A stretch of 61,886 nucleotides of DNA from assembly GCA_037440805.1 (NCBI GenBank), contig JBBITK010000002.1, positions 1 to 61,886 of the forward strand. Reading direction: 5' to 3'. The translations under genes and the position numbers were made by a program. The DNA comes from Arcobacter sp. (GTDB lineage: Bacteria; Campylobacterota; Campylobacteria; Campylobacterales; Arcobacteraceae). This document shows, one piece after another, positions 23,670-56,237 of this stretch. The notes under the pieces were generated by a model. That model saw nothing but the letters and a program-made list of their open reading frames with translations. It had not been told where the DNA came from and searched no databases. Within the stretch, counting starts at the first letter, position 1. Each line of letters begins with the position of its first letter.

Positions 23670-25355
23670 ATGTTTAACAAAGAGTTTTTATTTATAAACG
23701 CTATCAAATACGCAAATGGTCAATTAAAACTTGATTATAAAAAAATCAAAGATGAACAAATTGTTGAAACTAATAACTCTGCATTTTTAGCAGATAGTGA
23801 TATTATTCCTATTGATATTGCTCACAAATTAAATAGTTCACAATCAGAAAATCAAAATAGTTATATTTCTACACTTTTAATAAACGATAATCCTACTATA
23901 AAACCTATTGGCGAGGCTATAAATTCTAAAGAGTTTGATATTGCTCAATTTAATCAAGAGTTTAATATTGTTACTACAAAAACTAGTATAACAGAAACTA
24001 CTAGCTATTTTCATTTGACGGGTTTAGATTATATATATTCAGCATTTCATATTATGAATTTACATTTGGAAGAGAATGTAAGTAGCGATGAGATGTTAGT
24101 TTTTTTGTTTAATAATAAAGCATATATTCTAATTGTAAATAAAAATTCATCGATAGTTTTTAATGGTGTTGAAGAACTTATAACATTTGAACATATTAAA
24201 AAAACCCATTTCTATAATAATGATATGGATAGACAAATGTTATTTGATGAAGTTTATTTCTTTGAATTAAATTCAATTATCACAAATACTCTATCAAATT
24301 ATTATGCCAAAGATGGTAGTGAAACAATTAAAAAGATCACAATTTTATACACAATAAAACAGATAACAAATGAACAATTAGAGCAACTAAGAGATGAAAC
24401 TCTTATAAAAGTAGATTATCATCCAATTAATATTGATGAAGAAATTTTTGAATTATCAAAAAATAGACATTTCAAAAAAAGTTTCATTAAGCCAAGAAAG
24501 AAAAAGAAAAAATCAAATATAGTATGGTTTATAGCTATTATTTTAACTATGATTTTGATTTTTATAGGATTTAAATATAGTGATGAAATAGTTAATATTT
24601 TATCTTCTAATAAAGAGAAAACAGAAAAAGTTGTTGTAGAAAAAATAGAAGAAGCAAAAACTGAAGAAAAGATTTCTCCTAAAATAGAACCTAAAGTTGT
24701 AGTTGAAGAGAAAAAAGAAGAGCCAATAGTTGTTAAAAAAGAGGAAAAAATAGATATTAAATTACCTGATCATATCTATTTAAATGAGATTATCTCAAAT
24801 AAAATTAGTACAATTTTTGGAGTAATATCTTATGATGTGGTTTTAAAAGATATTAGAATAGAAGATAATGTCGTTGTATTAAATAGTACTCTTTTGAAAA
24901 AGAGAACTTTTGAAAAATCATTAAAACCAAATTTAGAGAAATTATATAAAGAGGTAGATTTAAGAGTTGAAGATAAGAATAAAAAGGCTTTAATTGATTC
25001 TACTATAACATTAAAAGATGAAATATTATCTTCAGATATTAATTACAAGAATTTTAATGGTAAATATGATGTTGATAAATATCTTTCTACAACAGAAGTT
25101 GATGAAGTGGTAAAATCTTTAATGCCAAAAAATGCAATAATAAAAAATTTAGAAGTTAATGAAGTTGATTATGTATCGAAATCTAATTATAAAATTAATA
25201 TTTTGACTAAATCTCCTGTAGAGTTTTTTAATTTAATTGATAGATTAAATGCTCAAAATAGCTCAATAAATATCAATTACCCTATTTCTATGAAAAAGAC
25301 TTTAAATGGAATAGAAATAGAGTTTAATTTAGTTTATAATCAAGGGAAGAAATAG
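23670..25355 (+). CDS. Bitopic membrane protein, possibly fused PilM/PilN/PilO-like
   Basis: About 280-aa N-terminal domain, KKKKKS plus one TM, K/E linker and two C-terminal alpha/beta domains. The function is inferred. Confidence 0.6.
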   Translation: MFNKEFLFINAIKYANGQLKLDYKKIKDEQIVETNNSAFLADSDIIPIDIAHKLNSSQSENQNSYISTLLINDNPTIKPIGEAINSKEFDIAQFNQEFNIVTTKTSITETTSYFHLTGLDYIYSAFHIMNLHLEENVSSDEMLVFLFNNKAYILIVNKNSSIVFNGVEELITFEHIKKTHFYNNDMDRQMLFDEVYFFELNSIITNTLSNYYAKDGSETIKKITILYTIKQITNEQLEQLRDETLIKVDYHPINIDEEIFELSKNRHFKKSFIKPRKKKKKSNIVWFIAIILTMILIFIGFKYSDEIVNILSSNKEKTEKVVVEKIEEAKTEEKISPKIEPKVVVEEKKEEPIVVKKEEKIDIKLPDHIYLNEIISNKISTIFGVISYDVVLKDIRIEDNVVVLNSTLLKKRTFEKSLKPNLEKLYKEVDLRVEDKNKKALIDSTITLKDEILSSDINYKNFNGKYDVDKYLSTTEVDEVVKSLMPKNAIIKNLEVNEVDYVSKSNYKINILTKSPVEFFNLIDRLNAQNSSININYPISMKKTLNGIEIEFNLVYNQGKK

Positions 25356-31629: not shown

Positions 31630-32607
31630 ATGAATTACAAAAACACTATTGAAAAGCTAATAGAGATATATAAAAGGTCTAATTTAAGTATTTCAAAATT
31701 TGCAACATTAATAAATAAAGATAGAAGAACAGTTACAACTTGGATAGATAATATTGCAGAAATTGAACCAACAAAAGATATAAAAGATAGAATCTGCCAA
31801 GTCTTTAGATATCCAGATTATATTTGGGAAGATGGATGTGATGGGGATGAATTTTTAAAATCTATCACACAAATACCTCAAAAGGAGGTAAGAATAATTG
31901 ATGAAGATTATTATGGGAGATTAAAATATATTATGGAGCAAGAGCAACATAGAAGATTTGTTATTCAAGCCCAATTCCCAGGACCTATGTACAGAGATAG
32001 TACAGTCCAAAGAGTTTATAGAAGTTCTACAAGTAGTGAGATTGAAGAGTTAAAGCAACAAAGAATAAATCAAATGTTGAAATATGATTATGATACAACA
32101 GAGTGGTATTCAATTAAATCTGTTTTATCTTTTTGTTTTGCAAGTATTGGAAACTTTTATACAAAAGAAGAAAAGATAAAAGTTTTAGAGCTTGTTTATG
32201 AATTGTTCAATAATAATTACAATAAAAAACTATTTTTATTTGATTCTTTTTCAAGAAAAATTTATGGAATGGAAACAACATATATTTCTATAAATGTAAA
32301 ACAAAAAATACTATTTTTTAAATCACCAATAGAATCAGTTTTTATTGAGATTAGAAATAAATCTTTGGTTGAAAGAATGCATAAATATTATAGCTCTCCA
32401 ATAGAAGCACCTTCCCATGTGAACTTTTTAGAATCAGTAAAAATCATAAAAATCTTACAAGATGCAGTAAGATATAACAATGATATAAAACAAGCCTATG
32501 AAATGATAAATAGACAAACAGATTATGGAGAGCTTTTTTACAATAATTTAAGTATTGATTTGCAAAAAGAGGTAACAGCTCCAAAAATTGGTCAAAAAAG
32601 AAATTAA
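31630..32607 (+). CDS. XRE-type HTH protein, putative transcriptional regulator
   Basis: N-terminal [24 protein letters not shown]....ICQVF fits an XRE/Cro HTH. Divergent from prpB. Confidence 0.65.
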
Positions 32608-33660: not shown

Positions 33661-34644
33661 TTATTTTTTATCCAAATAATTTTGCAACTCTTTTATGGCT
33701 GTTTCGTTTTTGATAAGGAATTTTATCTCTATTCTTCTTGATGCATCTTTGTCTTCTATCCCATCTTTATAGATTAAATCAGAAGATGATTTCCCACTAG
33801 AACTTACAAATTTTCCAAGTAAATCTTTATTTATTAAATTTGCATCATATAAAAATTGCATAACTTCCAATGCTCTTTTTTGGGATAATTCTAAATTTGT
33901 TAAATATCCACCATCACTATTAGTATGCCCTTCTATAGTTATACTTTGAATATATTTTTTTACATCTTCATCTGTTAGTAATGTTTGAAGGTATTGTTTC
34001 ATAACTGTTGATAATTTTTTCTTAGCTTCCTCTTTTAGTTTATATTGTCCTTGGTCAAACAAAATATTTGAAGAGAATTTTATAGCTCCTGTTTTATCAT
34101 CAATATCAATAGAATTACCTAATTTTTCTTTTAGTTTTGCAATAACAGTAAGTTTTATTCCTGTTAAATCTTTGATTTTTGCTTTTGTTATATCAAACTC
34201 TTCAACAAGTTTTTGTTGAATTTTTGATTGTTCAATCAATGATTGAGCAAGAGTTGCTATCTCTTCTTCTTTTAGAGCTATTAAATTGTGTTTATTTAAA
34301 ATCTCTTGAGATAATTTTTCATAATTTTCATTATGTTCTTTCTCTTTTAATTCATAACCAAGTAATAAATCCTTTAATTTATTAAGTTCTGTTAAATTTA
34401 ATTCATTTAAAGCATTTGATTTGGCTAATCTCTCTTTCAAATCCATAACAACTTTATCTTTACTCAATAGTTGTTCTTGACTTTGATTTAGTGCATTTTT
34501 CTCTTTTTCTAAAATAGCTTGAGTATAAAGATATTTTATAACTATTGCTCCTATAACAAGTATAAAAACAAACAGAAGTCCAGCCATTAAATCGGCATAG
34601 GAAATCCAAAAATTTTCATCATTTTTTTCGTGTTTTTTATACAT
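33661..34644 (-). CDS. ZorB/MotB-like protein with N-terminal TM, coiled coil and OmpA peptidoglycan-binding domain
   Basis: FWISYADLMAGLLFVF, IEGHTNSDG, NLELSQKRA and SRRIEI. Confidence 0.85.
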   Translation of the reverse strand: MYKKHEKNDENFWISYADLMAGLLFVFILVIGAIVIKYLYTQAILEKEKNALNQSQEQLLSKDKVVMDLKERLAKSNALNELNLTELNKLKDLLLGYELKEKEHNENYEKLSQEILNKHNLIALKEEEIATLAQSLIEQSKIQQKLVEEFDITKAKIKDLTGIKLTVIAKLKEKLGNSIDIDDKTGAIKFSSNILFDQGQYKLKEEAKKKLSTVMKQYLQTLLTDEDVKKYIQSITIEGHTNSDGGYLTNLELSQKRALEVMQFLYDANLINKDLLGKFVSSSGKSSSDLIYKDGIEDKDASRRIEIKFLIKNETAIKELQNYLDKK

Positions 34645-34650
34645 TTGAAA

Positions 34651-35868
34651 CTACTTTGATGATTGATTTAATTGTGCTAAATCTTCAACTATTTTTGCTG
34701 TTTGTTCATCTATTAATTCTAAAGAGTTTTTTAGTTTTTCAGTAAATTTAGAATCATAGTTTTCAATTTGAGTTTCAAGTTTTGAACCTATAAAAGTAAC
34801 TTCACTTTTCATATTCTCTACACCTTTAAGTATCTCTGTATATAGGTTTTTAACATTTTCAGAACTTAAATGTTGTAAAGAGTTATTTAAAGTTTCAATA
34901 CTACTATTTAGTTTTTCAGATGTTTTTCCAAAAATTTCCCTTTGGTTTTCAAAAAGTTGAACATTTTTATTTACATGGGAAGTCATAGTTTTGATAGTAT
35001 TTGCCAATTCTTGATTATTCTCTACATTATCACTAATTCTTGTTGATAACTCTAACTCTTTTTTCAATATATCTTCCAATAAAGATACCCTTTGTTCTAT
35101 TAGACTATTTATATTTTCCACATAATTATTTGAGCTTAGTTTTTCAAATAATTCATTCATTTTTGCAAAGCTATCTAAATTGTTTTTAACATGTATTGTT
35201 TCAATATCAATTTTTGTCCAAAAGTGAGATTTTGTATCTTCTTTGATTGTGTAAATGTCATGTTCAAATCTACTCATTCCAATTTTTTCAAAAAATGTCC
35301 ACCATAAAGATAAAAAAATACCATAAATAGATACATAAAATGCTGTTCCAACTCCACCTAAAAGTTTTGAAATTTCACTTTCTAAAGCTGTTGTATTTCC
35401 AGAATTAAAATCAGGCATACTAAACGCAATAGATATAAAAGTTCCCAAAATTCCAAGTGTTGGGAATACTGCAGAGGCTATTGATGAGAAATTAGTATTT
35501 CTAAGATTATTTGTATAATCTTCTAAAAAACTATCAACATCTCCATTTGCTTTAGTTGTATTCCCCAAAGTCAAAAGATTTTTTTCTACATAATCTTGTA
35601 AACTCAATATTAAATCTTGTTTTTGGTTCCTAAATTTACAAGAGGCATAATAAGCATTATTTTTTATAAAAAACAGATATATCAAATATATAAATCCAAT
35701 TAAAATTACACTGTGAATTTCAATCTTTAGGGATAAATAGTTTAGATAACACATCAATACTGCAACAAAAAGAATAGTTGGTATTGTTAAAAGCATAAAT
35801 ATTTTTGAAGATTGACTACATCTATAATTACTAGTTTCTATATGTATGGTAGTTGATTCATTTTGCAT
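34651..35868 (-). CDS. ZorA-like MotA/TolQ/ExbB ion-channel protein with long helical C-terminal tail
   Basis: PTLGILGTFISI and TAFYVSIYGIFLSL TM motifs, then about 210 aa of heptad-rich tail. Confidence 0.82.
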   Translation of the reverse strand: MQNESTTIHIETSNYRCSQSSKIFMLLTIPTILFVAVLMCYLNYLSLKIEIHSVILIGFIYLIYLFFIKNNAYYASCKFRNQKQDLILSLQDYVEKNLLTLGNTTKANGDVDSFLEDYTNNLRNTNFSSIASAVFPTLGILGTFISIAFSMPDFNSGNTTALESEISKLLGGVGTAFYVSIYGIFLSLWWTFFEKIGMSRFEHDIYTIKEDTKSHFWTKIDIETIHVKNNLDSFAKMNELFEKLSSNNYVENINSLIEQRVSLLEDILKKELELSTRISDNVENNQELANTIKTMTSHVNKNVQLFENQREIFGKTSEKLNSSIETLNNSLQHLSSENVKNLYTEILKGVENMKSEVTFIGSKLETQIENYDSKFTEKLKNSLELIDEQTAKIVEDLAQLNQSSK

Positions 35869-35994
35869 TTTAATTCCTGATTTTATAGTTTTTAGTTTAG
35901 AAAGTTTAGCATATTAAAACTAACTAAGTTTTAATTTTTTGGATAGTTTTATGAATAAAAGTTTAATTTTTATGAAGAGTTTAAGAGGTAAAAA

Positions 35995-37272
35995 TTACCT
36001 CTGTGTTTTATTAAACTCGTCTCTTCCTATGAAGTTAGTTTTGTTTGTTTCAACAACCATTTGTTTTGCCATTTGGTCATTTACATTTGCAACCTCAAGG
36101 GTATGTTGTGCTCTTTGTGCATTTTCTTGAGTGATTTTATCCATTTGAGAAACTGCATTGTTTATTTGCTCAATTCCTCTTTGTTGTTCTCTCAATGAAT
36201 TGGAAACATCATTCATAATAACTCTTGTTTTACCGATATTTTCATTGATAATTGTATATTCATTTATCATATCGTTTGAAGCAACTTTTCCTCTTTTTGT
36301 AACATCAGTTGCATCACCAACAAGTTTTTTTATCTCTTTTGCAGCTTCTGCAGCTCTTGAAGCCAAACTTCTAACTTCAGCAGCAACAACAGCAAAACCT
36401 TTTCCAGCTTCTCCAGCAGTTGCTGCTTCAACAGCAGCATTAAGAGATAGGATATTTGTTTGGAAAGCAATTTGGTCAATTACAACAATAGCTTCTTCAA
36501 TAGCTTTTGTTTTTTCATCAATTTCATCCATTAAAGTAGCACTATCTTTTGCATTTGAATAACCTTTTTCTATAGAAGTTCCAAGGTTATTTGAGTAAGT
36601 TAGCATATTTTGAACATTTCTATTATTTTCAACGATAGTTGATGTGATTTGTTCAATAGCAGCAGCTGTTTGTTCTAAAGTTGCAGATTGTTCAATAACA
36701 CTTCTACCTAATGAATCCATATTTGCTTTTAATAAATCAGAATTTGCACTAAGTTTAATGTTGTTTTTTAGACTGCTTAAAAGCATTTTGGAAATTTTTA
36801 TATTTACATGATTGATTTGTTCTATCATATCTTTTAAATCATTGTTGTAATTATTCTCAATTTGAATAGTAAAATCATTTTTATTGTATTTATCCATAAA
36901 TGAAACTACAGAATTTATAGTTTTTCTAAATTGCTCTAAAGTTGTATTTATGTTAGAAGATATCTCTTGTAATTTTTGGTTTTGTGAATTTCTACTAACT
37001 CTCACATCATATTCACCATTACTTGATTGTCTTGTAACATCTATTAAATCATTTAGAATTTCATCATCATAATTTTGTGAAATAGGTTCATTTTTCACAA
37101 TAGTTTCAATCTTATTTTGACTTTCTTGAGGTATAAAATTCACCCCTATAAGTGATAATATGGAAACCACAGAAACTATAATATGTATAGTTGAAGTTTT
37201 TTCAGCGGTAATTAACAAAAATAATATTGTTAATATGGCAATCGACGACGATATAATCGTACTTTTATTCAT
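35995..37272 (-). CDS. Methyl-accepting chemotaxis protein
   Basis: [37 protein letters not shown]. Two closely spaced TM helices. Confidence 0.95.
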
Positions 37273-39253: not shown

Positions 39254-40353
39254 TTATACTTTTATATTGATTTGTTTATAGTAAACCAAACAAAGAGCTA
39301 TCAAAATCACTCCTAAAATAGCAAAAACTCCGTAATATAAAAAATAAGCCAAAACAAAAATCAAAATAGATTTCAAAATCCCATCAATATAACCATTAAA
39401 TATTTGTAGAGCTTCATTTATATTTGATTTATATATGTTTTTCAAAATATTCATAAATGAGGCATAAAACAAGCCAAAAGTAAAAAAATGAAAAGCTTGA
39501 ATAATACAAAGTAAAATAAAATTATCAATAAATAAATCAAAAAACAGAAGCCTCAAACCAGTAATCAAACTAGCAACCAAAAAGAGTTGATTAAAACTAT
39601 AAAGTTTAAAAAGATGGTGAGCTGTAAAAAACGCAATTATTTCAAAAAATATCCCAACACTTAATAATATACTTGTATCCACTTCACTATAACCAAAAAT
39701 ACTAAGATATACACCAATAAATGTATGAAAAAATGACATAAATATCATTACAACTCCACCAATAAGCCAAAAAGAAAAGGCATTTGTTGTTTTGATATTT
39801 TGGTTCGATTTTTCACTTGTAATGTGAAGTTGAAGCACTTTTTTTCTTTGATACAAAATAGCATTTGAAACCACAAAATAGATAAACATATAAATATAAA
39901 AAAGCAGACTCATATCTTTTATAAGAGATGGAAAAGCAATAATTGCCAAAAAAGTGAAAAACCACCAAAAGAGCCAAAAACCCTAAAAAGACCCAAATAT
40001 TTGCGGTAAGTTTTGATTTTGATTTGGTCAAAATATGAGATTACAAAGTTATTTACAATCCCAAAAAGTGTGGCAAAAAAGAGAACCAAATAGAAATTAT
40101 TTTGAAATAAATACACTAATATACACAATAAAACATATAAATTATTAAGAATATATATTTTTAGTTTTGCAAATTCTATATGTTTAAAAAGATTTATGGA
40201 TAAAAATCTAAAAAAAGTCAAACTCCCTATAATAATTCCAATTTCATAAGTTTCATATTGTTTTTGAAGTTGCATAGGAAAAACCATAATAAAATATACA
40301 ATTATAGACCAATAACTAAAATAGAAAATCTTTAGATTTGTTCGTAGGAGCAT
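39254..40353 (-). pseudogene. MFS transporter (HcaT/LacY-like) split by a 1-nt frameshift
   Basis: Two overlapping hydrophobic ORFs. Adding one T to the T6 run (A6 at 39948-39953) joins RVFGSFGGFSLF-LAIIAFPSL into a 366-aa protein. Confidence 0.8.
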
Positions 40354-40962: not shown

Positions 40963-41253
40963 ATGCAAAGAGAAATAGCAATAAATTTACTAAAAAAATT
41001 TAAAGAACTTAATCAACAAAAATATGGAATTGAAGCTTTGGGACTATTTGGTTCAACAGCAAGAGATGAAGCAAAACCCACAAGTGATGTTGATATTTGT
41101 ATAAAAACCCAAAAAGCTGATTTGTTCGCTCTTGTACATATAAAACAAGAATTGGAAGAATTTTTATCAACTCCTATTGATATTGTAAGAGTTAGGGATA
41201 AAATGAACCCTTTTTTTAAAAATAGAATTGAAAAAGAGGCTATTTATGTATGA
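40963..41253 (+). CDS. Minimal nucleotidyltransferase (MntA-type antitoxin)
   Basis: LFGSTARDEA...SDVDI motif, 96 aa. Extended -10 TGCTATAAT at 40925-40933. Confidence 0.92.
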   Translation: MQREIAINLLKKFKELNQQKYGIEALGLFGSTARDEAKPTSDVDICIKTQKADLFALVHIKQELEEFLSTPIDIVRVRDKMNPFFKNRIEKEAIYV

Positions 41254-41320
41254 TAAATCTCTTGTTCTTGAGATATTAACTCAAACTATATTATATGAGG
41301 TTGATAATGATGAGAGATAA
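41246..41320 (+). pseudogene. Truncated HEPN/DUF86 toxin N-terminal remnant
   Basis: MYDKSLVLEILTQTILYEVDNDER* starts overlapping the MNT stop. The first 13 aa resemble DUF86 N-termini. Confidence 0.55.
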
Positions 41321-41564
41321 AAATGATAAGCAAATATTAAAAGATTGTTTTATCTGTATAGAAGGGATGAATACTCCGTTTTTGGTTAGTATCGAAACAA
41401 GTTTGGGAATAAAATTAGAAAATGAAAATCCACTCCCTATTGAAGTACTAAAAGATAATTATAAAAAAGAATCAAATTGTATTGGTTTTGTACCAATTTT
41501 ATTCCTAAAGTCAGAAAAAATATTTATTTGTCCAATATCAGAATACCCTGAATGTCATGTTTGA
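41310..41564 (+). CDS. Hypothetical protein
   Basis: ORF of about 84-89 aa after GAGG. Start uncertain (41295, 41307 or 41310). Confidence 0.5.
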   Translation: MRDKNDKQILKDCFICIEGMNTPFLVSIETSLGIKLENENPLPIEVLKDNYKKESNCIGFVPILFLKSEKIFICPISEYPECHV

Positions 41565-41566
41565 AA

Positions 41567-41654
41567 TTATCTCAAGCTCACTCCAACCCTTTGTTTCTAC
41601 AAATCCCGCTTATAACTTTTAAATTTTTCAACTGTTGATTTATACTCAAAACTT
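41567..41654 (-). repeat. Degenerate duplicate of the tex 3' end (direct repeat of 42264-42352)
   Basis: Hand alignment gives 10 substitutions and 1 deletion over 89 nt, and includes the stop codon. Confidence 0.92.
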
Positions 41655-41659
41655 AAATC

Positions 41660-41689
41660 TTGACAAAAAGATACTATATTTAGTACAAT
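41660..41689 (+). promoter_or_regulatory. Sigma70-like promoter with overlapping palindrome (TA operator candidate)
   Basis: TTGACA (41660-41665), 18 nt, TACAAT (41684-41689). TACTA-N4-TAGTA at 41672-41685. Confidence 0.7.
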
Positions 41690-41713
41690 ATTTCATATTT
41701 AAAAAGGATTTAT

Positions 41714-41965
41714 ATGCAACCAATTTTAGCAAATTATACAGCGAGTATCACAGAACTCAAAAAGTCTCCTACTCAATTACTCAATGATGCAGGTGATGAG
41801 GTTATAGCTATTTTAAATCATAATATTCCAAGTGCTTATTTAGTTCCAAGTAAGTTATATGAAAAAATGATGGATATTATTGATGATTATCATTTATCTT
41901 TAGAAGTTGAAAAATCTTTAACTGATGGTGAAAAATCAATCAAAGTAAACTTAGATGACTTATAA
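41714..41965 (+). CDS. Phd/YefM family antitoxin (StbD-like)
   Basis: ASITELKKSP and AILNHNIPSAYLVP. Overlaps the toxin start. Confidence 0.92.
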   Translation: MQPILANYTASITELKKSPTQLLNDAGDEVIAILNHNIPSAYLVPSKLYEKMMDIIDDYHLSLEVEKSLTDGEKSIKVNLDDL

Positions 41966-42239
41966 TCTTGAGTTTAAACCTAAAGCTTTAAAAGAGTGGA
42001 GTAAGCTAGGCTCTACAATAAAAGAGCAGTTTAAAAATAAACTAAAAGAGAGATTGGAAAATCCAAGAGTTGAAAAAGACAAACTAAGTGGATATGAAAA
42101 TGTTTATAAAATTAAACTAAAAACTGTTGGTTATAGACTGGCTTACGAAGTAAAAGATGAAGAGATAATAGTTTTGGTATTGGCTGTTGGGAAAAGAGAA
42201 AAAGATAAAATATATAAAGATTTAAAAGATAGATTTTGA
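41955..42239 (+). CDS. relE: RelE/StbE family toxin
   Basis: YNLEFKPKALKEWSKL, YKIKL...GYRLAY and VLAVGKRE. Confidence 0.92.
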   Translation: MTYNLEFKPKALKEWSKLGSTIKEQFKNKLKERLENPRVEKDKLSGYENVYKIKLKTVGYRLAYEVKDEEIIVLVLAVGKREKDKIYKDLKDRF

Positions 42240-51765: not shown

Positions 51766-53790
51766 TTAAATTTCCTCTTTTATCTTTTGTAAATCAGCTA
51801 CTTTATTTATATACTCTAATTTTTTTGTCTCAACGAAGTTTATACTCTCTTCATTTATCTCCAAATATTGCCCTTTTGAATATTTGATAATTTTGAATAG
51901 ATAGTTTCTTTTTGAAGTTAAGAAATCTTCTATTTTTTCAAATCCAAAGTTTGCTTTTAGTTTTGTAAAAATCTCATCTTCCCTTGGATGTTGAATAGCA
52001 AATCTTGAAGGCTCTTTTTTGAATAACTCTTCTGATTCGTGGATTTGTTGCTCAAAATGTGCAATGGTAGCTTGTGTAATTTGCATATATGAATATGATA
52101 ATGCACCGTTAAAATAAGCAAATTTTTTTCTAAGAGCTGAAATATTTTCCAAAATAGCTGTATGGTAAGTTTTTAAAACATTTTCATAAATTTTTGCTGC
52201 GAAGTGTCTTGTATTTGAAAATTCCAAATCAGAAGCAATTTCCCTATTTTTTCTGATTAGTTCATAAGGTTCTTGCCATTTTGCAACTTCACTATTTATA
52301 AAGCTATAAACATCTCTAAACGCTTCATCTGTTGCTAATTCATTGTTTTTTAGAAGTTTAATTGACCTTTTAAACATTTTATCAATTAATTGGTCATCAT
52401 AAAATAGAGTTTTATAAACACTATCAGAATCAATCCAATATGTTTCATACTCTATTTTTTCTATTTTACCACCCAAAAATCCTTTAGACTCTTCAAATCT
52501 ATAAGCTGGTCTTTTTTTGATATTTTTGTATGTTTCGTGGGCTATTTTTTCCATAATTGATTCCAAAGAGTTATAAATATCAAATAGCTCTTTGGAGTAT
52601 TTTTTGTAGATATTGTCAAACATCTCTAAAACTTTTGGTTCACAACCTTTTAATACCTCTTTTAGTGAGTCATAAACTTTTGTGATTGTTGCATACTCTT
52701 GAGTTAAAATATCACAGATACCTTTTAAATCTTTTTTAATCGCAAACTCTTTTGCCTCTGCTGCTTGTGGTCTCATAACATTTTCTATAAAATCAAGAAC
52801 TTTTTGGATATTTGATTCATCTAAAAGTTTTGTATTATCTGTTGCATCAGAATTTTTGATATTGTTGATTTTTTCCCTATATTTTTTGATATTTTCATCA
52901 AAAAAATCTAAATCATCAATATTTTTTTCAAGTAAATCTTTTTTGAACTCTGTTATAAGATGCTGATACTCATCTTGGATTAATACATCTTTATGTTGAG
53001 CTCTTGATTCCAAAGCCATTTTTGCAGAAATAGGAGTTACTTGAGCAAAATATTTAGCAAACTTTTCACTTACATATTTTGTTGTTGTCTCTATTTGTTC
53101 AGGAGTTAATTTATCTTTTTGATTCAAAACACATAAAGATTTATTTTTGAAGTGTTGCATATACTCTTCCAAAACTTCCGCTTCAGATAGTTTTCCTGCA
53201 TTATCAATTAGTGTTAGCCAAATAATTCCACCAACATCTTTTAAAACTTTTTTAGTAACATCTGTATCGCTTTGAGATTGTGAGTTAAGACCTGGAGTAT
53301 CTACAAATGAAATCTCTTTTAGCATATTCATAGGTGCGTATAAAGTTAAGTATTTAACATTTTTCATATCATCTTTTCGCTGATCCGTAAAATCTGCAAT
53401 GGCTTCTATTGGAGCATACTCTTGTGCACCAGAGTAGTATGTGATTTTTAGTTTGTACTCTTCACCGTAGTTGATAAAATTAACTTTTGAAGTAACAGGA
53501 GTAATTCCTGTTGGAAGAACATTTTTTGATAACAAAGCATTTAAAAATGTAGATTTACCTGCAGAAAATTGCCCAGTAATCGCAACTTCCATAGGATACC
53601 TAGCTCTTCTTAACTGCTTATTCAAAATATTTTCTAGCTGATTAGAAGGAAGGAATTTTTCATCCATCAGTTTATCTTTTATCTTTTTTATTTCTCCAAT
53701 TAAACCCGTTTCATAAACAACTTCTTCTTGTGTATATGTCTCTTTGAACTCTTGAACAAAGCTTTTTAGTATAGTTAAATTTGCACTCAT
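51766..53790 (-). CDS. Bacterial dynamin-like protein (second subunit)
   Basis: GQFSAGKST, P.T, DTPG and NQKD GTPase motifs plus a helical tail. Confidence 0.92.
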   Translation of the reverse strand: MSANLTILKSFVQEFKETYTQEEVVYETGLIGEIKKIKDKLMDEKFLPSNQLENILNKQLRRARYPMEVAITGQFSAGKSTFLNALLSKNVLPTGITPVTSKVNFINYGEEYKLKITYYSGAQEYAPIEAIADFTDQRKDDMKNVKYLTLYAPMNMLKEISFVDTPGLNSQSQSDTDVTKKVLKDVGGIIWLTLIDNAGKLSEAEVLEEYMQHFKNKSLCVLNQKDKLTPEQIETTTKYVSEKFAKYFAQVTPISAKMALESRAQHKDVLIQDEYQHLITEFKKDLLEKNIDDLDFFDENIKKYREKINNIKNSDATDNTKLLDESNIQKVLDFIENVMRPQAAEAKEFAIKKDLKGICDILTQEYATITKVYDSLKEVLKGCEPKVLEMFDNIYKKYSKELFDIYNSLESIMEKIAHETYKNIKKRPAYRFEESKGFLGGKIEKIEYETYWIDSDSVYKTLFYDDQLIDKMFKRSIKLLKNNELATDEAFRDVYSFINSEVAKWQEPYELIRKNREIASDLEFSNTRHFAAKIYENVLKTYHTAILENISALRKKFAYFNGALSYSYMQITQATIAHFEQQIHESEELFKKEPSRFAIQHPREDEIFTKLKANFGFEKIEDFLTSKRNYLFKIIKYSKGQYLEINEESINFVETKKLEYINKVADLQKIKEEI

Positions 53791-56144
53791 TAATGTAATC
53801 CTTTAACTGTAGATGAAATCGTCTGAAGTTTTTTGATATTTTTGTGAATATTAATAGATAATTCTGATCTATTTTTATCATTTTCTTCAAATGAATTAAT
53901 CTGATTTTGAAGAGTCTCTTCATCATTTTTTAGTTTTTGTTCAAATGTTTTTAGAGGTGCATTTAAAGTTTCAAAAAATGATTCAATCAATAGGGTACTT
54001 ACTTTTTTGGCTTTAGATTTTATATCCTCTTCTATTGATGAAAATTGATTTTTAATTAATCCTTCTATTTCTCTATCTAACTCATTTAATTTACTATCTT
54101 TTGATTTTGAAACAGCACTTGTGATTTGAGATACTAAAACTTCATTGTTTGTTGTCAAGAATCCAGATTTAAAATCATCTTGGAAAAATCCTCTTGCATC
54201 AAAATTATCATTTTTATGACCTATTGTAAATCCCAAATCTTGGTATTTTTGTTCACATTGTTCACCTATAGTTTGAGATTTTTTGATAAATTTATATCTA
54301 TAATCTCTAATAACATCAATAATTCCATCTTTAATAGCTGTTTCAACAATGGCTTTTATTCTACTATTTTCAGGTCTTTTTTTGATTTTTTCAAAGGAAT
54401 ATCTAACATCTCCCACAACCCTTTGTTTTATAACAGTTTGTAAATCTACTAATTCACTCTTTAAAAAAGTCTCCAAAGAGTTGATATACTCTTTTGCATC
54501 ATTTTTATAATAATTTATATCTTCTCTCATTGCTGTAAATATTCTAGTGTTTACATTTTTTCTTTTATTAAAATCTGCTAACTCTTTTTCAAGTTCATCT
54601 TTAGATTTTGAAAGAAGTTTTAATTCATAGTTGTAAAAAGATAGTTGTTTTTCTATTGTTCTTGAGATTTGATTTTTTGCTGATTGAACAACAATCTCCC
54701 CTTTTTGTGAGTTTGAACCAAATAGTGTTTCTGTTAGATATTTTTCAATCTCCAAAATACCCGTATCTTCTATCTTATAACCAGCATCTAATGCCTCTTG
54801 TTCTCTTCCAGTTCTGTGTAAAAGAGCCATTTTCCCAGAAATAGGAACAAATTTGATAGTTTTTAAAATATAATCTAATTGAGAACCTTTATTTTGTTCT
54901 CTAAGTTGTTTCTCTATTGAAGATTTTGTATAGTCTATAACCTCTTGAAGTTGCTGTTTGCTAACAGTATCAGCTCTTGTTATAACAATTAAAAGCTTTG
55001 AAATATTTTGATAAAGTAGGGCATCAATTATAAACTCAACATCTTTTAAAGTAGCACTTTGAGATACATTCATAAGGTGTAACATCATATCACATTGACT
55101 TAAATACTCTTTTGTAATCTCTTCCCTTTGGATAACTGGGTCATCAAGTCCTGGAGTATCAACTATTTCTATTCCATCAGATAAAAATTTTAAATCAGAA
55201 CCCAATTCCACATATTTTACTAAATTACATTTTTTCCCACTAGCTTCTGCTGAAGTGTAAGAAGATAATGAAGCAATATCAACTTCATCAAATCTTGAAT
55301 TTGGTCGGATATAATTTTTTAGTTCATCACCAAAAATTCTGTTTGTCTCTTGTACAAACTCTTTCATAGATTCAAGTTGTTCTGCTGATTTTAGGATTCT
55401 ATCCCACTCTTGTGTATTCCAATAAAATACCTTTGCATTTTCTGTTACATTGTGTTTTACAATAGTTAAATTGGCTGTTTCAGGTACAACAGCACTTCCT
55501 AAAATTTCTCTACCCATCAAAGCATTTAGCATTGTAGATTTACCAGCATTCATAACACCTGTAATTCCAATAGAGAATTTTTGATTATTTAAGTAGTTAT
55601 TTGTGCTTGATAACTCTTCTTGAATTTCACTATTATCAACAAAACCTTTTATCTCTTGAATAATATTTTCAATATTTGATTTTAACTCTTTGAATGAAGA
55701 TTTAACTTTATTTATAGACTCTTCTTCATTTTCAAAAAGTGTAATTTGTTCTATTTTCTCAAGTTCTTTGTGGTCAAATAAAGAGATTAATTTGTCATAA
55801 CTCTCTTGGTTTATTATTTGTTCATTTTTCAGATAATCAAATGAAAAGTGTAAAATATCAATGTAATTATTTGTAATATTTTTCATTACAGATTCAACAA
55901 TGTTATATTGCAGATGATTTAACTCATTTATGTTAGAAGGACTTTTAACATTTATTTGTTGGCATAATGTTTTAAATGATGTTAAAGGAAGGAATTTATC
56001 GTAATTTTTTCTGTTTGCACTGATAATTAAAGCATAAATAGAAAAAGTATCTTCACCTATTTTTGCATCCATTGGTTCAACATCTAAAGTTGGTTCGAAG
56101 TTTGTTCCATGATATAATAAAAAGTAGTCGTTAATAAGGCTCAT
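53790..56144 (-). CDS. Bacterial dynamin-like protein (first subunit)
   Basis: GVMNAGKST, PET, DTPGLDD and TRAD. Start at MSLINDY. Confidence 0.92.
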   Translation of the reverse strand: MSLINDYFLLYHGTNFEPTLDVEPMDAKIGEDTFSIYALIISANRKNYDKFLPLTSFKTLCQQINVKSPSNINELNHLQYNIVESVMKNITNNYIDILHFSFDYLKNEQIINQESYDKLISLFDHKELEKIEQITLFENEEESINKVKSSFKELKSNIENIIQEIKGFVDNSEIQEELSSTNNYLNNQKFSIGITGVMNAGKSTMLNALMGREILGSAVVPETANLTIVKHNVTENAKVFYWNTQEWDRILKSAEQLESMKEFVQETNRIFGDELKNYIRPNSRFDEVDIASLSSYTSAEASGKKCNLVKYVELGSDLKFLSDGIEIVDTPGLDDPVIQREEITKEYLSQCDMMLHLMNVSQSATLKDVEFIIDALLYQNISKLLIVITRADTVSKQQLQEVIDYTKSSIEKQLREQNKGSQLDYILKTIKFVPISGKMALLHRTGREQEALDAGYKIEDTGILEIEKYLTETLFGSNSQKGEIVVQSAKNQISRTIEKQLSFYNYELKLLSKSKDELEKELADFNKRKNVNTRIFTAMREDINYYKNDAKEYINSLETFLKSELVDLQTVIKQRVVGDVRYSFEKIKKRPENSRIKAIVETAIKDGIIDVIRDYRYKFIKKSQTIGEQCEQKYQDLGFTIGHKNDNFDARGFFQDDFKSGFLTTNNEVLVSQITSAVSKSKDSKLNELDREIEGLIKNQFSSIEEDIKSKAKKVSTLLIESFFETLNAPLKTFEQKLKNDEETLQNQINSFEENDKNRSELSINIHKNIKKLQTISSTVKGLH

Positions 56145-56160
56145 ATTGTATACCCCTAAA

Positions 56161-56237
56161 TATAAAAAGTTAAACACCACAAAATCTGATGTTTAACTTT
56201 TTATATTTTTTATAAATAAGGGAAAATCCCTTATTTA
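56161..56237 (-). terminator. Two hairpins after frdB
   Basis: TAAATAAGGG-AAAAT-CCCTTATTTA (56213-56237) and TATAAAAAGTTAAACA...TGTTTAACTTTTTATA (56161-56205). Confidence 0.7.

Follow-up and report, generated by a model that had tools for sequence, protein, structure and literature searches.

A conserved and uncharacterised ZorAB-type motor pair in Arcobacter and its relatives

ZorAB motors have otherwise been described only as phage sensors that need nucleases of their own. A stretch of 61,886 nucleotides from Arcobacter sp. (assembly GCA_037440805.1, contig JBBITK010000002.1), called the window below, carries two adjacent genes of this type with no such partner, which raises the question of what the motor does there. 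Gene A (34651..35868) encodes a ZorA-like motor subunit of 405 amino acids (aa) and gene B (33661..34644) a ZorB-like subunit of 327 aa. Both lie on the minus strand, as do all features of the pair given below, and the gap of 6 nucleotides (nt) between them noted in the original prediction is borne out by the coordinates. They are the orthologues of Campylobacter jejuni Cj0598 and Cj0599. Two core genes of C. jejuni and C. coli that lacked annotation thereby gain an identity that can be tested. We found a real, conserved and uncharacterised ZorAB-type motor pair, which is highly probable to be a proton motor. It is not a member of Zorya, though likely ZorAB-like at the membrane.

Kinship and anatomy of the two subunits

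A sequence search of the Protein Data Bank (PDB) returned ZorA for all six significant matches of A and ZorB for the top three matches of B. The five best Foldseek rows for B are ZorB as well, and B scores 8.6e-59 on the PADLOC ZorB1 model. In the fold comparison A stands closest to ZorA (Z 10.1-10.8), followed by TolQ/ExbB (7.1-9.4) and MotA/PomA (6.0-6.8); ZorA leads TolQ, at its best match, by roughly one Z unit, and sequence and a beta-hairpin bear part of the assignment. A aligns with 8qyd_A over 228 residues (root-mean-square deviation 8.4) and with 8vvi_C over 98 residues (2.5). The ZorAB-like architecture first proposed for the pair is thus what sequence, profile and fold return as best matches. 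Yet the curated NCBIfam cut-offs are missed by A (46.5 vs 500 bits and 45.9 vs 100 bits) and by B (82.2 vs 400 bits and 59.3 vs 400 bits).

A quick tree of 87 rows held 38 of the 98 family A proteins, nine Zorya or Helicobacter proteins, 35 unnamed matches and five MotA/ExbB/TolQ proteins of the own genome. Family A and five unnamed proteins form one clade (Shimodaira-Hasegawa-like approximate likelihood ratio, SH-aLRT, 93), the neighbouring clade holds Zorya I/II-type proteins (88), and both lie apart from MotA/ExbB/TolQ (95). These groupings come from the quick tree only; long branches join at its root, and the ZorA likeness of the unnamed rows is one of profile. Clustering with flagellar stators, which had been named as a sign against the assignment, was found neither in tree nor in fold. 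Three families (f1, f7 and f11) are each spread over two subclades, which indicates old paralogy or transfer.

Subunit A has Pfam MotA_ExbB (PF01618) above cut-off at residues 123-205. Its model, built on a 64-row alignment (predicted local distance difference test, pLDDT, 83; predicted template modelling score, pTM, 0.56), has helices at 19-41, 51-70, 125-150 and 159-215, a beta-hairpin at 98-107 and a helical tail at 219-404. ZorA residues 13-280 align with 46-276 of this model, and four membrane helices are predicted in A vs three in Escherichia coli ZorA. By model and hydrophobicity the extra one is N-terminal (residues 19-41, 35746..35814) and lies outside the alignable region. The beta-hairpin (35548..35577) belongs to the membrane-proximal cytoplasmic domain and is a Zorya-type feature, described for the Zorya motor in parts of PMC11946911 and PMC12505986. 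Its conserved Lys106 is Lys in 60 of 64 rows and Arg in 4, and 59 of the 64 rows have an acidic residue at position 221; together they may be the counterpart of the ZorA bridge Arg108-Glu227 mentioned in the same part of PMC11946911. The span Thr143-Ser180 (35329..35442) is equivalent, at a register offset of 4 to 8qyd, to Thr147 and Ser184, given there as the ion-filter residues of E. coli ZorA. A conserved acidic pair at the ZorA Ca2+-binding position was absent from the A alignment.

The cytoplasmic tail of A (34657..35214), known from model and periodicity, would reach about 28 nm if extended. Its best hydrophobic period is 3.6, reached by 0 of 1000 shuffles. The original prediction of a MotA/ExbB-type membrane core with a heptad tail therefore holds for the Pfam core and for the helical nature of the tail; it does not hold for the period, which overall is nearer 3.6 than that of a strict heptad (3.52 in 247-331, 3.62 in 339-404), nor did it include the extra N-terminal helix. 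In uncut orthologues 141-265 residues follow Trp217. Some A orthologues carry PF28082, which is named ZorA-like_t1 in the ESM Atlas. A query of that atlas with the C. jejuni orthologues gave top clusters that are mostly Campylobacterota, among them one ZorA-like_t1 cluster at 0.90 and none with a functional name.

The monomer model of B (pLDDT 85) consists of a single helix at 10-161 and an OmpA-like domain, with one hydrophobic segment at residues 18-36. The motif FWISYADLM is identical to that of E. coli ZorB and contains the ion-binding Asp18 (34591..34593), which aligns with ZorB Asp26. Pfam OmpA covers residues 195-301. In this peptidoglycan-binding domain (33742..34062), placed by Pfam, alignment and fold, Asn250, Leu253 and Arg257 align with the wall-binding Asn152, Leu155 and Arg159 of ZorB. 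The earlier description of B as Asp motif, long coiled-coil helix and OmpA domain agrees with this. A thus has the membrane core, beta-hairpin domain and long helical tail of Zorya ZorA, and B the Asp and OmpA-like domain of ZorB. What sets B apart is the linker: in Zorya the wall-binding domain is joined to the transmembrane helix without a long one, and B carries a predicted periplasmic helix of 120 residues in its place. This stalk (residues 40-161, 34162..34527), supported by model, periodicity and alignment, is absent from Zorya ZorB and measures about 18 nm if extended. Its hydrophobic period is 3.5 (reached by 16 of 1000 shuffles). The distance from the Asp to the OmpA motif is 203-375 residues in 96 family members vs 116-131 in eight Zorya-type B proteins, a ninth not being parsed. 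Between fixed alignment anchors the stalk has 111-279 residues in 97 loci (16-41 nm if extended). Lengths in 77 of the 97 fall into one class modulo 7 and in 14 into a second class four residues off, and 16 of the 25 distinct lengths are in the main class; related loci are not independent in these counts.

Taken together, the two proteins would very probably assemble as A5B2 with a five-helix tail and rotate as protons pass Asp18 and Thr143/Ser180. A complex prediction with four copies of A(15-235) and two of B(5-55) scored 0.12 vs a mark of 0.32 and counts neither for nor against this assembly. Asp18 is kept in 92 of 97 loci, Thr143 in 97 of 98 and Ser180 in 93 of 98, so that ion conduction seems to be under selection nearly everywhere. 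The exceptions lie in genus g33, where five genomes (loci L048, L126, L127, L128 and L133), one of them C. lanienae, have Gly for Asp18, Cys or Ala for Ser180 and Asp or Thr for His52; four other genomes of g33 keep all three residues. Because the same five loci lose Asp18 and Ser180, the sequences support an ion path common to A and B, and the joint loss is probably one event in one genus. At L128, where Thr143 and the OmpA motif are missing too, the pair is decaying further.

Effectors, inheritance and neighbourhood

PADLOC found no ZorC, ZorD or ZorE among the 43 + 4 other window proteins scanned, and the window annotation places no Zorya effector or flagellar gene beside the pair. In the own genome (G000) the ZorC model, real ZorC and real ZorE found nothing, and real ZorD gave only a weak match to an SNF2 helicase on contig C58. 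Across the phylum ZorC (PF15611) exceeded its cut-off in one of 301 genomes (G276), as part of a full zorABCD and not with this pair. The ZorE model matched 10 of 301 genomes, two of them among the 124 of family f3, and did not match G000. BLAST with real ZorC, ZorD and ZorE found nothing in 114 flanking loci (1.09 Mb). As positive controls served a complete Zorya I in G276 (L113:3185-10437) and Zorya II in G287 and G217 (L111, L112); G276 and G217 scored strongly. No zorF or zorG adjoins the pair; DUF3348 was blank in the genome, as it was in the control panel, and ZorG (DUF2894) had no genome-wide search. The absence of effectors stated in the original prediction is upheld in window, genome and flanking loci. 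Since the curated cut-offs are missed and ZorC, ZorD and ZorE are neither adjacent nor found in the genome, the pair is not a Zorya system. As a separate observation, the SNF2-type helicase on C58 is followed by an 849-aa open reading frame (ORF) (G000:C58:9308-14397), and the two are possibly a defence locus of their own, the ZorD match being weak.

A matched 180 of the 301 phylum genomes. By numbered family the counts are f3 123/124, f4 11/12, f11 9/11, f10 1/1, f1 6/15, f7 6/23 (three weak), f2 22/90 (all weak) and f12 1/4 (weak), with none in f5, f6, f8, f9, f13 and f14; f3 includes C. jejuni, C. coli, C. fetus, C. lanienae and C. armoricus. In the own family 47 of 121 genomes matched, G000 included and one weakly, and in the own genus 11 of 11. 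Named relatives are Aliarcobacter and Arcobacter, at 60-65% identity. Zorya is patchy and mobile; the pair is not, though it is patchy in f1 (46 of 120). Among 68 chosen genomes FliG was not found in any of 11 from f4 and 14 from g38, which are each at least 99% complete and carry A, and it was present in many A-negative genomes. The own genome has a separate motA/motB on contig C8 and four ExbB/TolQ-type genes. With no flagellar gene in its flanks either, the pair has no flagellar link, as had been supposed.

B directly follows A in all 97 uncut loci of 98 picked by hand. A second set comprised 114 loci, of which 80 are from metagenomes and 34 are wide GTDB loci that almost all occur in the first set too. 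Here A is present in 114, B is adjacent in 100 of 100 where present, and no locus extends more than 400 bases past A without B. In family f3 each of the 55 loci has fba beside the pair, and none of the 38 loci from elsewhere does. Ratios of nonsynonymous to synonymous substitution (dN/dS) are 0.02-0.31 across all domains in six genome pairs (fba 0.04-0.05), with no sign of fast evolution in the tail. A had no match at E 1e-5 among 72,556 plasmids and 50,697 phages; ZorA2, used as a control, gave matches at E 1e-20 in 11 plasmids. Apparent second copies of A were discarded, as a profile re-search of five such genomes gave one strong copy each and weak coiled-coil matches. A search of representatives gave 54 unnamed matches of A at E up to 1e-30, of which ten were looked up and had no name. 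The pair is an obligate A-B, single-copy, chromosomally inherited module under purifying selection, and the earlier guess of a conserved housekeeping module in Campylobacterota fits its near-universal presence in f3, its fixed fba locus and this selection.

Around the pair a gene for an L,D-transpeptidase is the commonest direct neighbour (35 of 163), and in Campylobacter loci a periplasmic peptidyl-prolyl isomerase gene lies two genes upstream; both are weak context. The names peb4 and nth for Campylobacter neighbours come from Pfam and a published gene table. The L,D-transpeptidase (YkuD) gene (L001:6310-7782) stands head-to-head with A in 11 other sampled genomes of the genus; the own genome has it on another contig (G000:C17:1316-2221). 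As an obligate partner it is ruled out, since it occurs in the own genus only (12/121) and is unlinked in the own genome.

Of the weak f2 matches, those opened belong to a different, ZorA2-type family. Several f2 genera, Helicobacter winghamensis among them, carry a second, unrelated stand-alone ZorA2/ZorB2-type pair whose proteins have tails and 600-880 aa (L104:7627-11036, L105, L106, L107, L108, L109, L110, L114 and L115). It lies at a conserved spot directly 3' of exbB-exbD (mostly smpB-exbB-exbD). It groups with true Zorya II (support 98), the ZorE model was blank in 5 of 5 such genomes, and the pair seems to be a Zorya II motor that was domesticated independently.

Possible functions of the motor

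In the proposal set out in parts of PMC11946911, ZorB cannot span the distance to the wall (about 9 nm in E. coli) before a phage draws wall and membrane towards each other; ion flow then turns ZorA, and its tail recruits ZorC and ZorD. The long stalk of B removes the short reach on which this trigger depends, a point absent from the original prediction, and at about 18 nm if extended it makes first wall contact unlikely as the switch.

What little is known about the pair in cells comes from published transposon screens of C. jejuni. In our search no description of the pair as a motor was found, Cj0598 and Cj0599 being mentioned in passing; further mentions in omics supplements are possible. 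PMC12505986 omits ZorAB from its phylogeny, and 'Campylobacter' is absent from its main text. According to the tables of PMC5430854 the orthologues are not required in three strains and are marked 'No' in all 10 M1cam conditions, including survival in water. One row there runs contrary: CJM1cam_0576 has a log2 value of -3.56 in chicken (value 0.026), where the table still says 'No' and the partner rose by 2.3. In the tables of PMC5438104 the mouse log2 values are -4.07 and -3.71 vs a significance line of -6.2, and the values in defined medium resemble those of neighbouring genes; these drops lie within the general downshift of those data and are no defect specific to the pair. An older study, tabulated in PMC5557513, called Cj0598 'essential', a call countered by 170-204 unique insertions in that table and by the three strains of PMC5430854.

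We tentatively prefer, at not quite an even chance, a putative motor that is always anchored to the wall, is gated by tension on its stalk and serves envelope upkeep by reporting strain through the tail of A. In such a scheme A and B would form a proton-driven 5:2 rotary motor that the long predicted stalk of B holds on peptidoglycan at all times. What opens the motor would be an altered load on the stalk and not the moment at which B first reaches the wall, and a signal of strain or damage would pass down the roughly 28-nm tail to a cytoplasmic partner encoded elsewhere. Four points place envelope upkeep before phage sensing: inheritance with the core genome, the fixed operon, the lack of effectors and the lack of mobile copies. 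The silent screens speak for phage sensing. A bolder form, possible and on balance doubtful, makes the pair a rotary motor of ZorAB lineage with a non-defence job, a permanently anchored and tension-gated envelope sensor in which the stalk gains or loses whole heptads to suit the envelope of each lineage.

Several observations speak against envelope upkeep. The tabulated screens give no significant defect of the orthologues in rich or defined media, in mice or in the 10 M1cam conditions, a poor fit to such a role. The pair is absent from most genomes of its own family (46 of 120 match without G000) and from several whole families, and the altered lineage of g33 retains both genes without the Asp. 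Between families, column identity is low (about 0.2-0.3) in the tail of A, through which the signal would pass. The 163 direct neighbour genes fall into 66 clusters with no constant third gene, and the L,D-transpeptidase neighbour is restricted to the own genus. A 2.5-fold spread of stalk length is unlike a fixed membrane-to-wall ruler.

The strongest competitor, unlikely in our estimate, is a core-genome sensor of phages or predators that detects a breach as Zorya does and acts through an effector encoded elsewhere, for instance a resident nuclease. The nearest relatives are all Zorya motors, and purifying selection together with no phenotype in screens that, per their tables, were run without added phage is what is expected of a defence gene; the pair is also patchy among free-living lineages. 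Against it stand the rarity of effectors (the single ZorC-bearing genome has a complete Zorya I, the ZorE model matches 10 of 301, and the 114 flanking loci are blank), the fixed site after fba, the lack of plasmid copies and the lack of any sign that the tail evolves fast. Moreover, in E. coli the loss of any Zorya gene ends defence, as reported in a part of PMC11946911.

Less probable still is a force generator. A cytoplasmic structure would brace the tail of A, so that the motor could exert pull or torque on the stalk against the wall; Tol, Ton and Agl motors act in this way through TolA, TonB or Glt, and here the stalk would be a built-in transducer. In structure TolQ/ExbB indeed come next after ZorA, the length of the stalk would suffice to cross much of a periplasm, and the pair has no TonB/TolA-like gene or other constant partner at its side. 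However, the own genome already has four separate ExbB/TolQ-type genes and MotA, no substrate or cargo gene accompanies the pair, and the tabulated screens reveal no defect in growth, colonisation or invasion.

A tether or spacer that links inner membrane and wall in a largely passive way, and for which ion flow would be dispensable, is to be given little weight: it would explain why five g33 genomes retain both genes after losing Asp18 and Ser180 and why stalk length differs by lineage, and it conflicts with the retention of Asp18, Thr143 and Ser180 almost everywhere else. A second flagellar stator or chemotaxis component, suggested by automatic names such as 'chemotaxis protein MotB', by the gene for a methyl-accepting chemotaxis protein (MCP) upstream in the window and by a sub-cut-off MotB_plug match of B (19.3 vs 24 bits, covering the transmembrane motif only), can practically be dismissed, as f4 and g38 genomes carry A without FliG, the own genome has a true motA/motB, B has one continuous predicted helix where a stator has plug helix and flexible linker, and the published tables separate the orthologues from motility genes: in PMC4073491 motA insertions vanish at the invasion step (1448 to 0 reads) and orthologue insertions persist (1579 to 857 and 647 to 505), so that the orthologues are not needed for motility-dependent invasion, and in the mouse data of PMC5438104 cheA, at -8.5, passes the significance line of -6.2, which the pair does not reach (-4.1 and -3.7).

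The window and the comparison with known systems

The pair has a G+C content of about 0.25, like its flanks, and by Pfam lies between an EamA permease gene and the MCP gene. The window is ordinary housekeeping DNA with methylcitrate genes, murC, ilvC, cysS, nusA, frd and nuoN; an Rfam scan of it gave 0 matches. Upstream of A a conserved extended -10-like element, TGCTAAACT (35903..35911), is likely a housekeeping promoter, which we take to belong to the sigma-70 type motif class. An identical AATATGCTAAACT stands 5' of A in L001, L002, L004, L006, L008 and L010, despite a different upstream gene. The extended -10 pattern matched 28 of 98 loci and the sigma-54 and sigma-28 patterns 0 of 98; a generic sigma-70 scan gave 14 sites vs 18.4 expected and is uninformative. 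The sequence AGGA (35875..35878) is the ribosome-binding site of A. At the 3' end of the MCP gene lies a hairpin (35984..36002, no strand assigned; one found vs 0.4 expected in shuffles), possibly a terminator between that gene and the pair; its T-run suits the plus strand, and a role on the minus strand is uncertain.

Elsewhere in the window a 325-aa protein (31630-32607) has no Pfam, NCBIfam or PADLOC match. Its gene diverges from prpB and, in 14 of 35 loci, is linked to the prp cluster; the protein is possibly a regulator of the methylcitrate cycle. Positions 40963-42239 hold a small nucleotidyltransferase, a short ORF without assignment and a Phd/ParE toxin-antitoxin pair. An MFS_1-like permease at 39254-40353 seems to be divided between two ORFs that overlap (144 and 231 aa), for which a frameshift may be responsible, and a 561-aa protein at 23670-25355 has one central hydrophobic segment and no Pfam match at E 0.001. 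Tandem genes for dynamin-like GTPases of 674 and 796 aa lie at 51766-56180; the larger occurs in 80 of the 121 genomes of the own family, and its distribution does not follow that of the motor pair. The two are ruled out as its partner, since five A-bearing genomes (G021, G041, G046, G094 and G052) lack them and many A-negative genomes carry a dynamin-like gene.

Among known systems, MotA5B2 and PomAB share with the pair the MotA_ExbB membrane core and a single-pass B with Asp and OmpA-like domain. They differ in the lower fold match, the long C-terminal tail of A and the continuous helix that replaces plug and linker; unlike MotAB, the pair occurs without FliG and is dispensable for motility. 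ExbBD and TolQR have the PF01618 core in common with it and are the second-best fold match, whereas B is OmpA-type with no ExbD match and neither a TonB/TolA gene nor a constant third gene adjoins. The PRK09039 peptidoglycan-binding proteins resemble B in membrane anchor, coiled coil and OmpA-like domain. B is not one of them, since it reaches at most 49.5 bits vs cut-offs of 305-388 and is not among the six matches of a six-frame genome search.

Among the closest known counterparts are C. jejuni Cj0598 and Cj0599 (CJJ81176_0626/0627, CJM1cam_0575/0576), with 37% and 42% identity in the same order. At L169 and L171, whose proteins are named C. jejuni, fba (354 aa) is followed after 94 nt by A (480 aa), which overlaps B (317 aa) by 4 nt, in agreement with the Cj0597-Cj0599 layout in the gene table of PMC5557513. 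Unlike the window pair they have a longer A tail and lie after peb4-fba, not beside an MCP gene. Their annotation goes no further than membrane protein and OmpA family or putative MotB; ZorA/ZorB profile matches and 'chemotaxis protein MotB' labels in Campylobacterales mislead.

With the ZorA5B2 motor of Zorya types I and II (PDB 8qyd, 8vvn, 8vvi; described in parts of PMC11946911 and PMC11890865) the pair shares the fold of both subunits, the FWISYADLM Asp motif, the Thr/Ser ion filter, the beta-hairpin domain, a long cytoplasmic tail, the wall-binding residues of the OmpA-like domain and the A-B gene order. It differs from Zorya by having no zorC/D/E, by the 120-residue stalk of B and the extra N-terminal membrane helix of A, by an A tail of about 190 residues vs about 500 in E. 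coli ZorA, by the missing Ca2+-site acidic pair, and by its own tree clade, core chromosomal inheritance and scores far under the NCBIfam cut-offs. An effector-free, conserved lineage with a long stalk implies that motors of this class can be gated by a different rule and serve a different output. If the permanently anchored, tension-gated sensor is true, Cj0598/Cj0599 would be a tractable model for what such tails signal to, and the sister clade to the Zorya I/II motors would mark the type of housekeeping machine from which Zorya was recruited.

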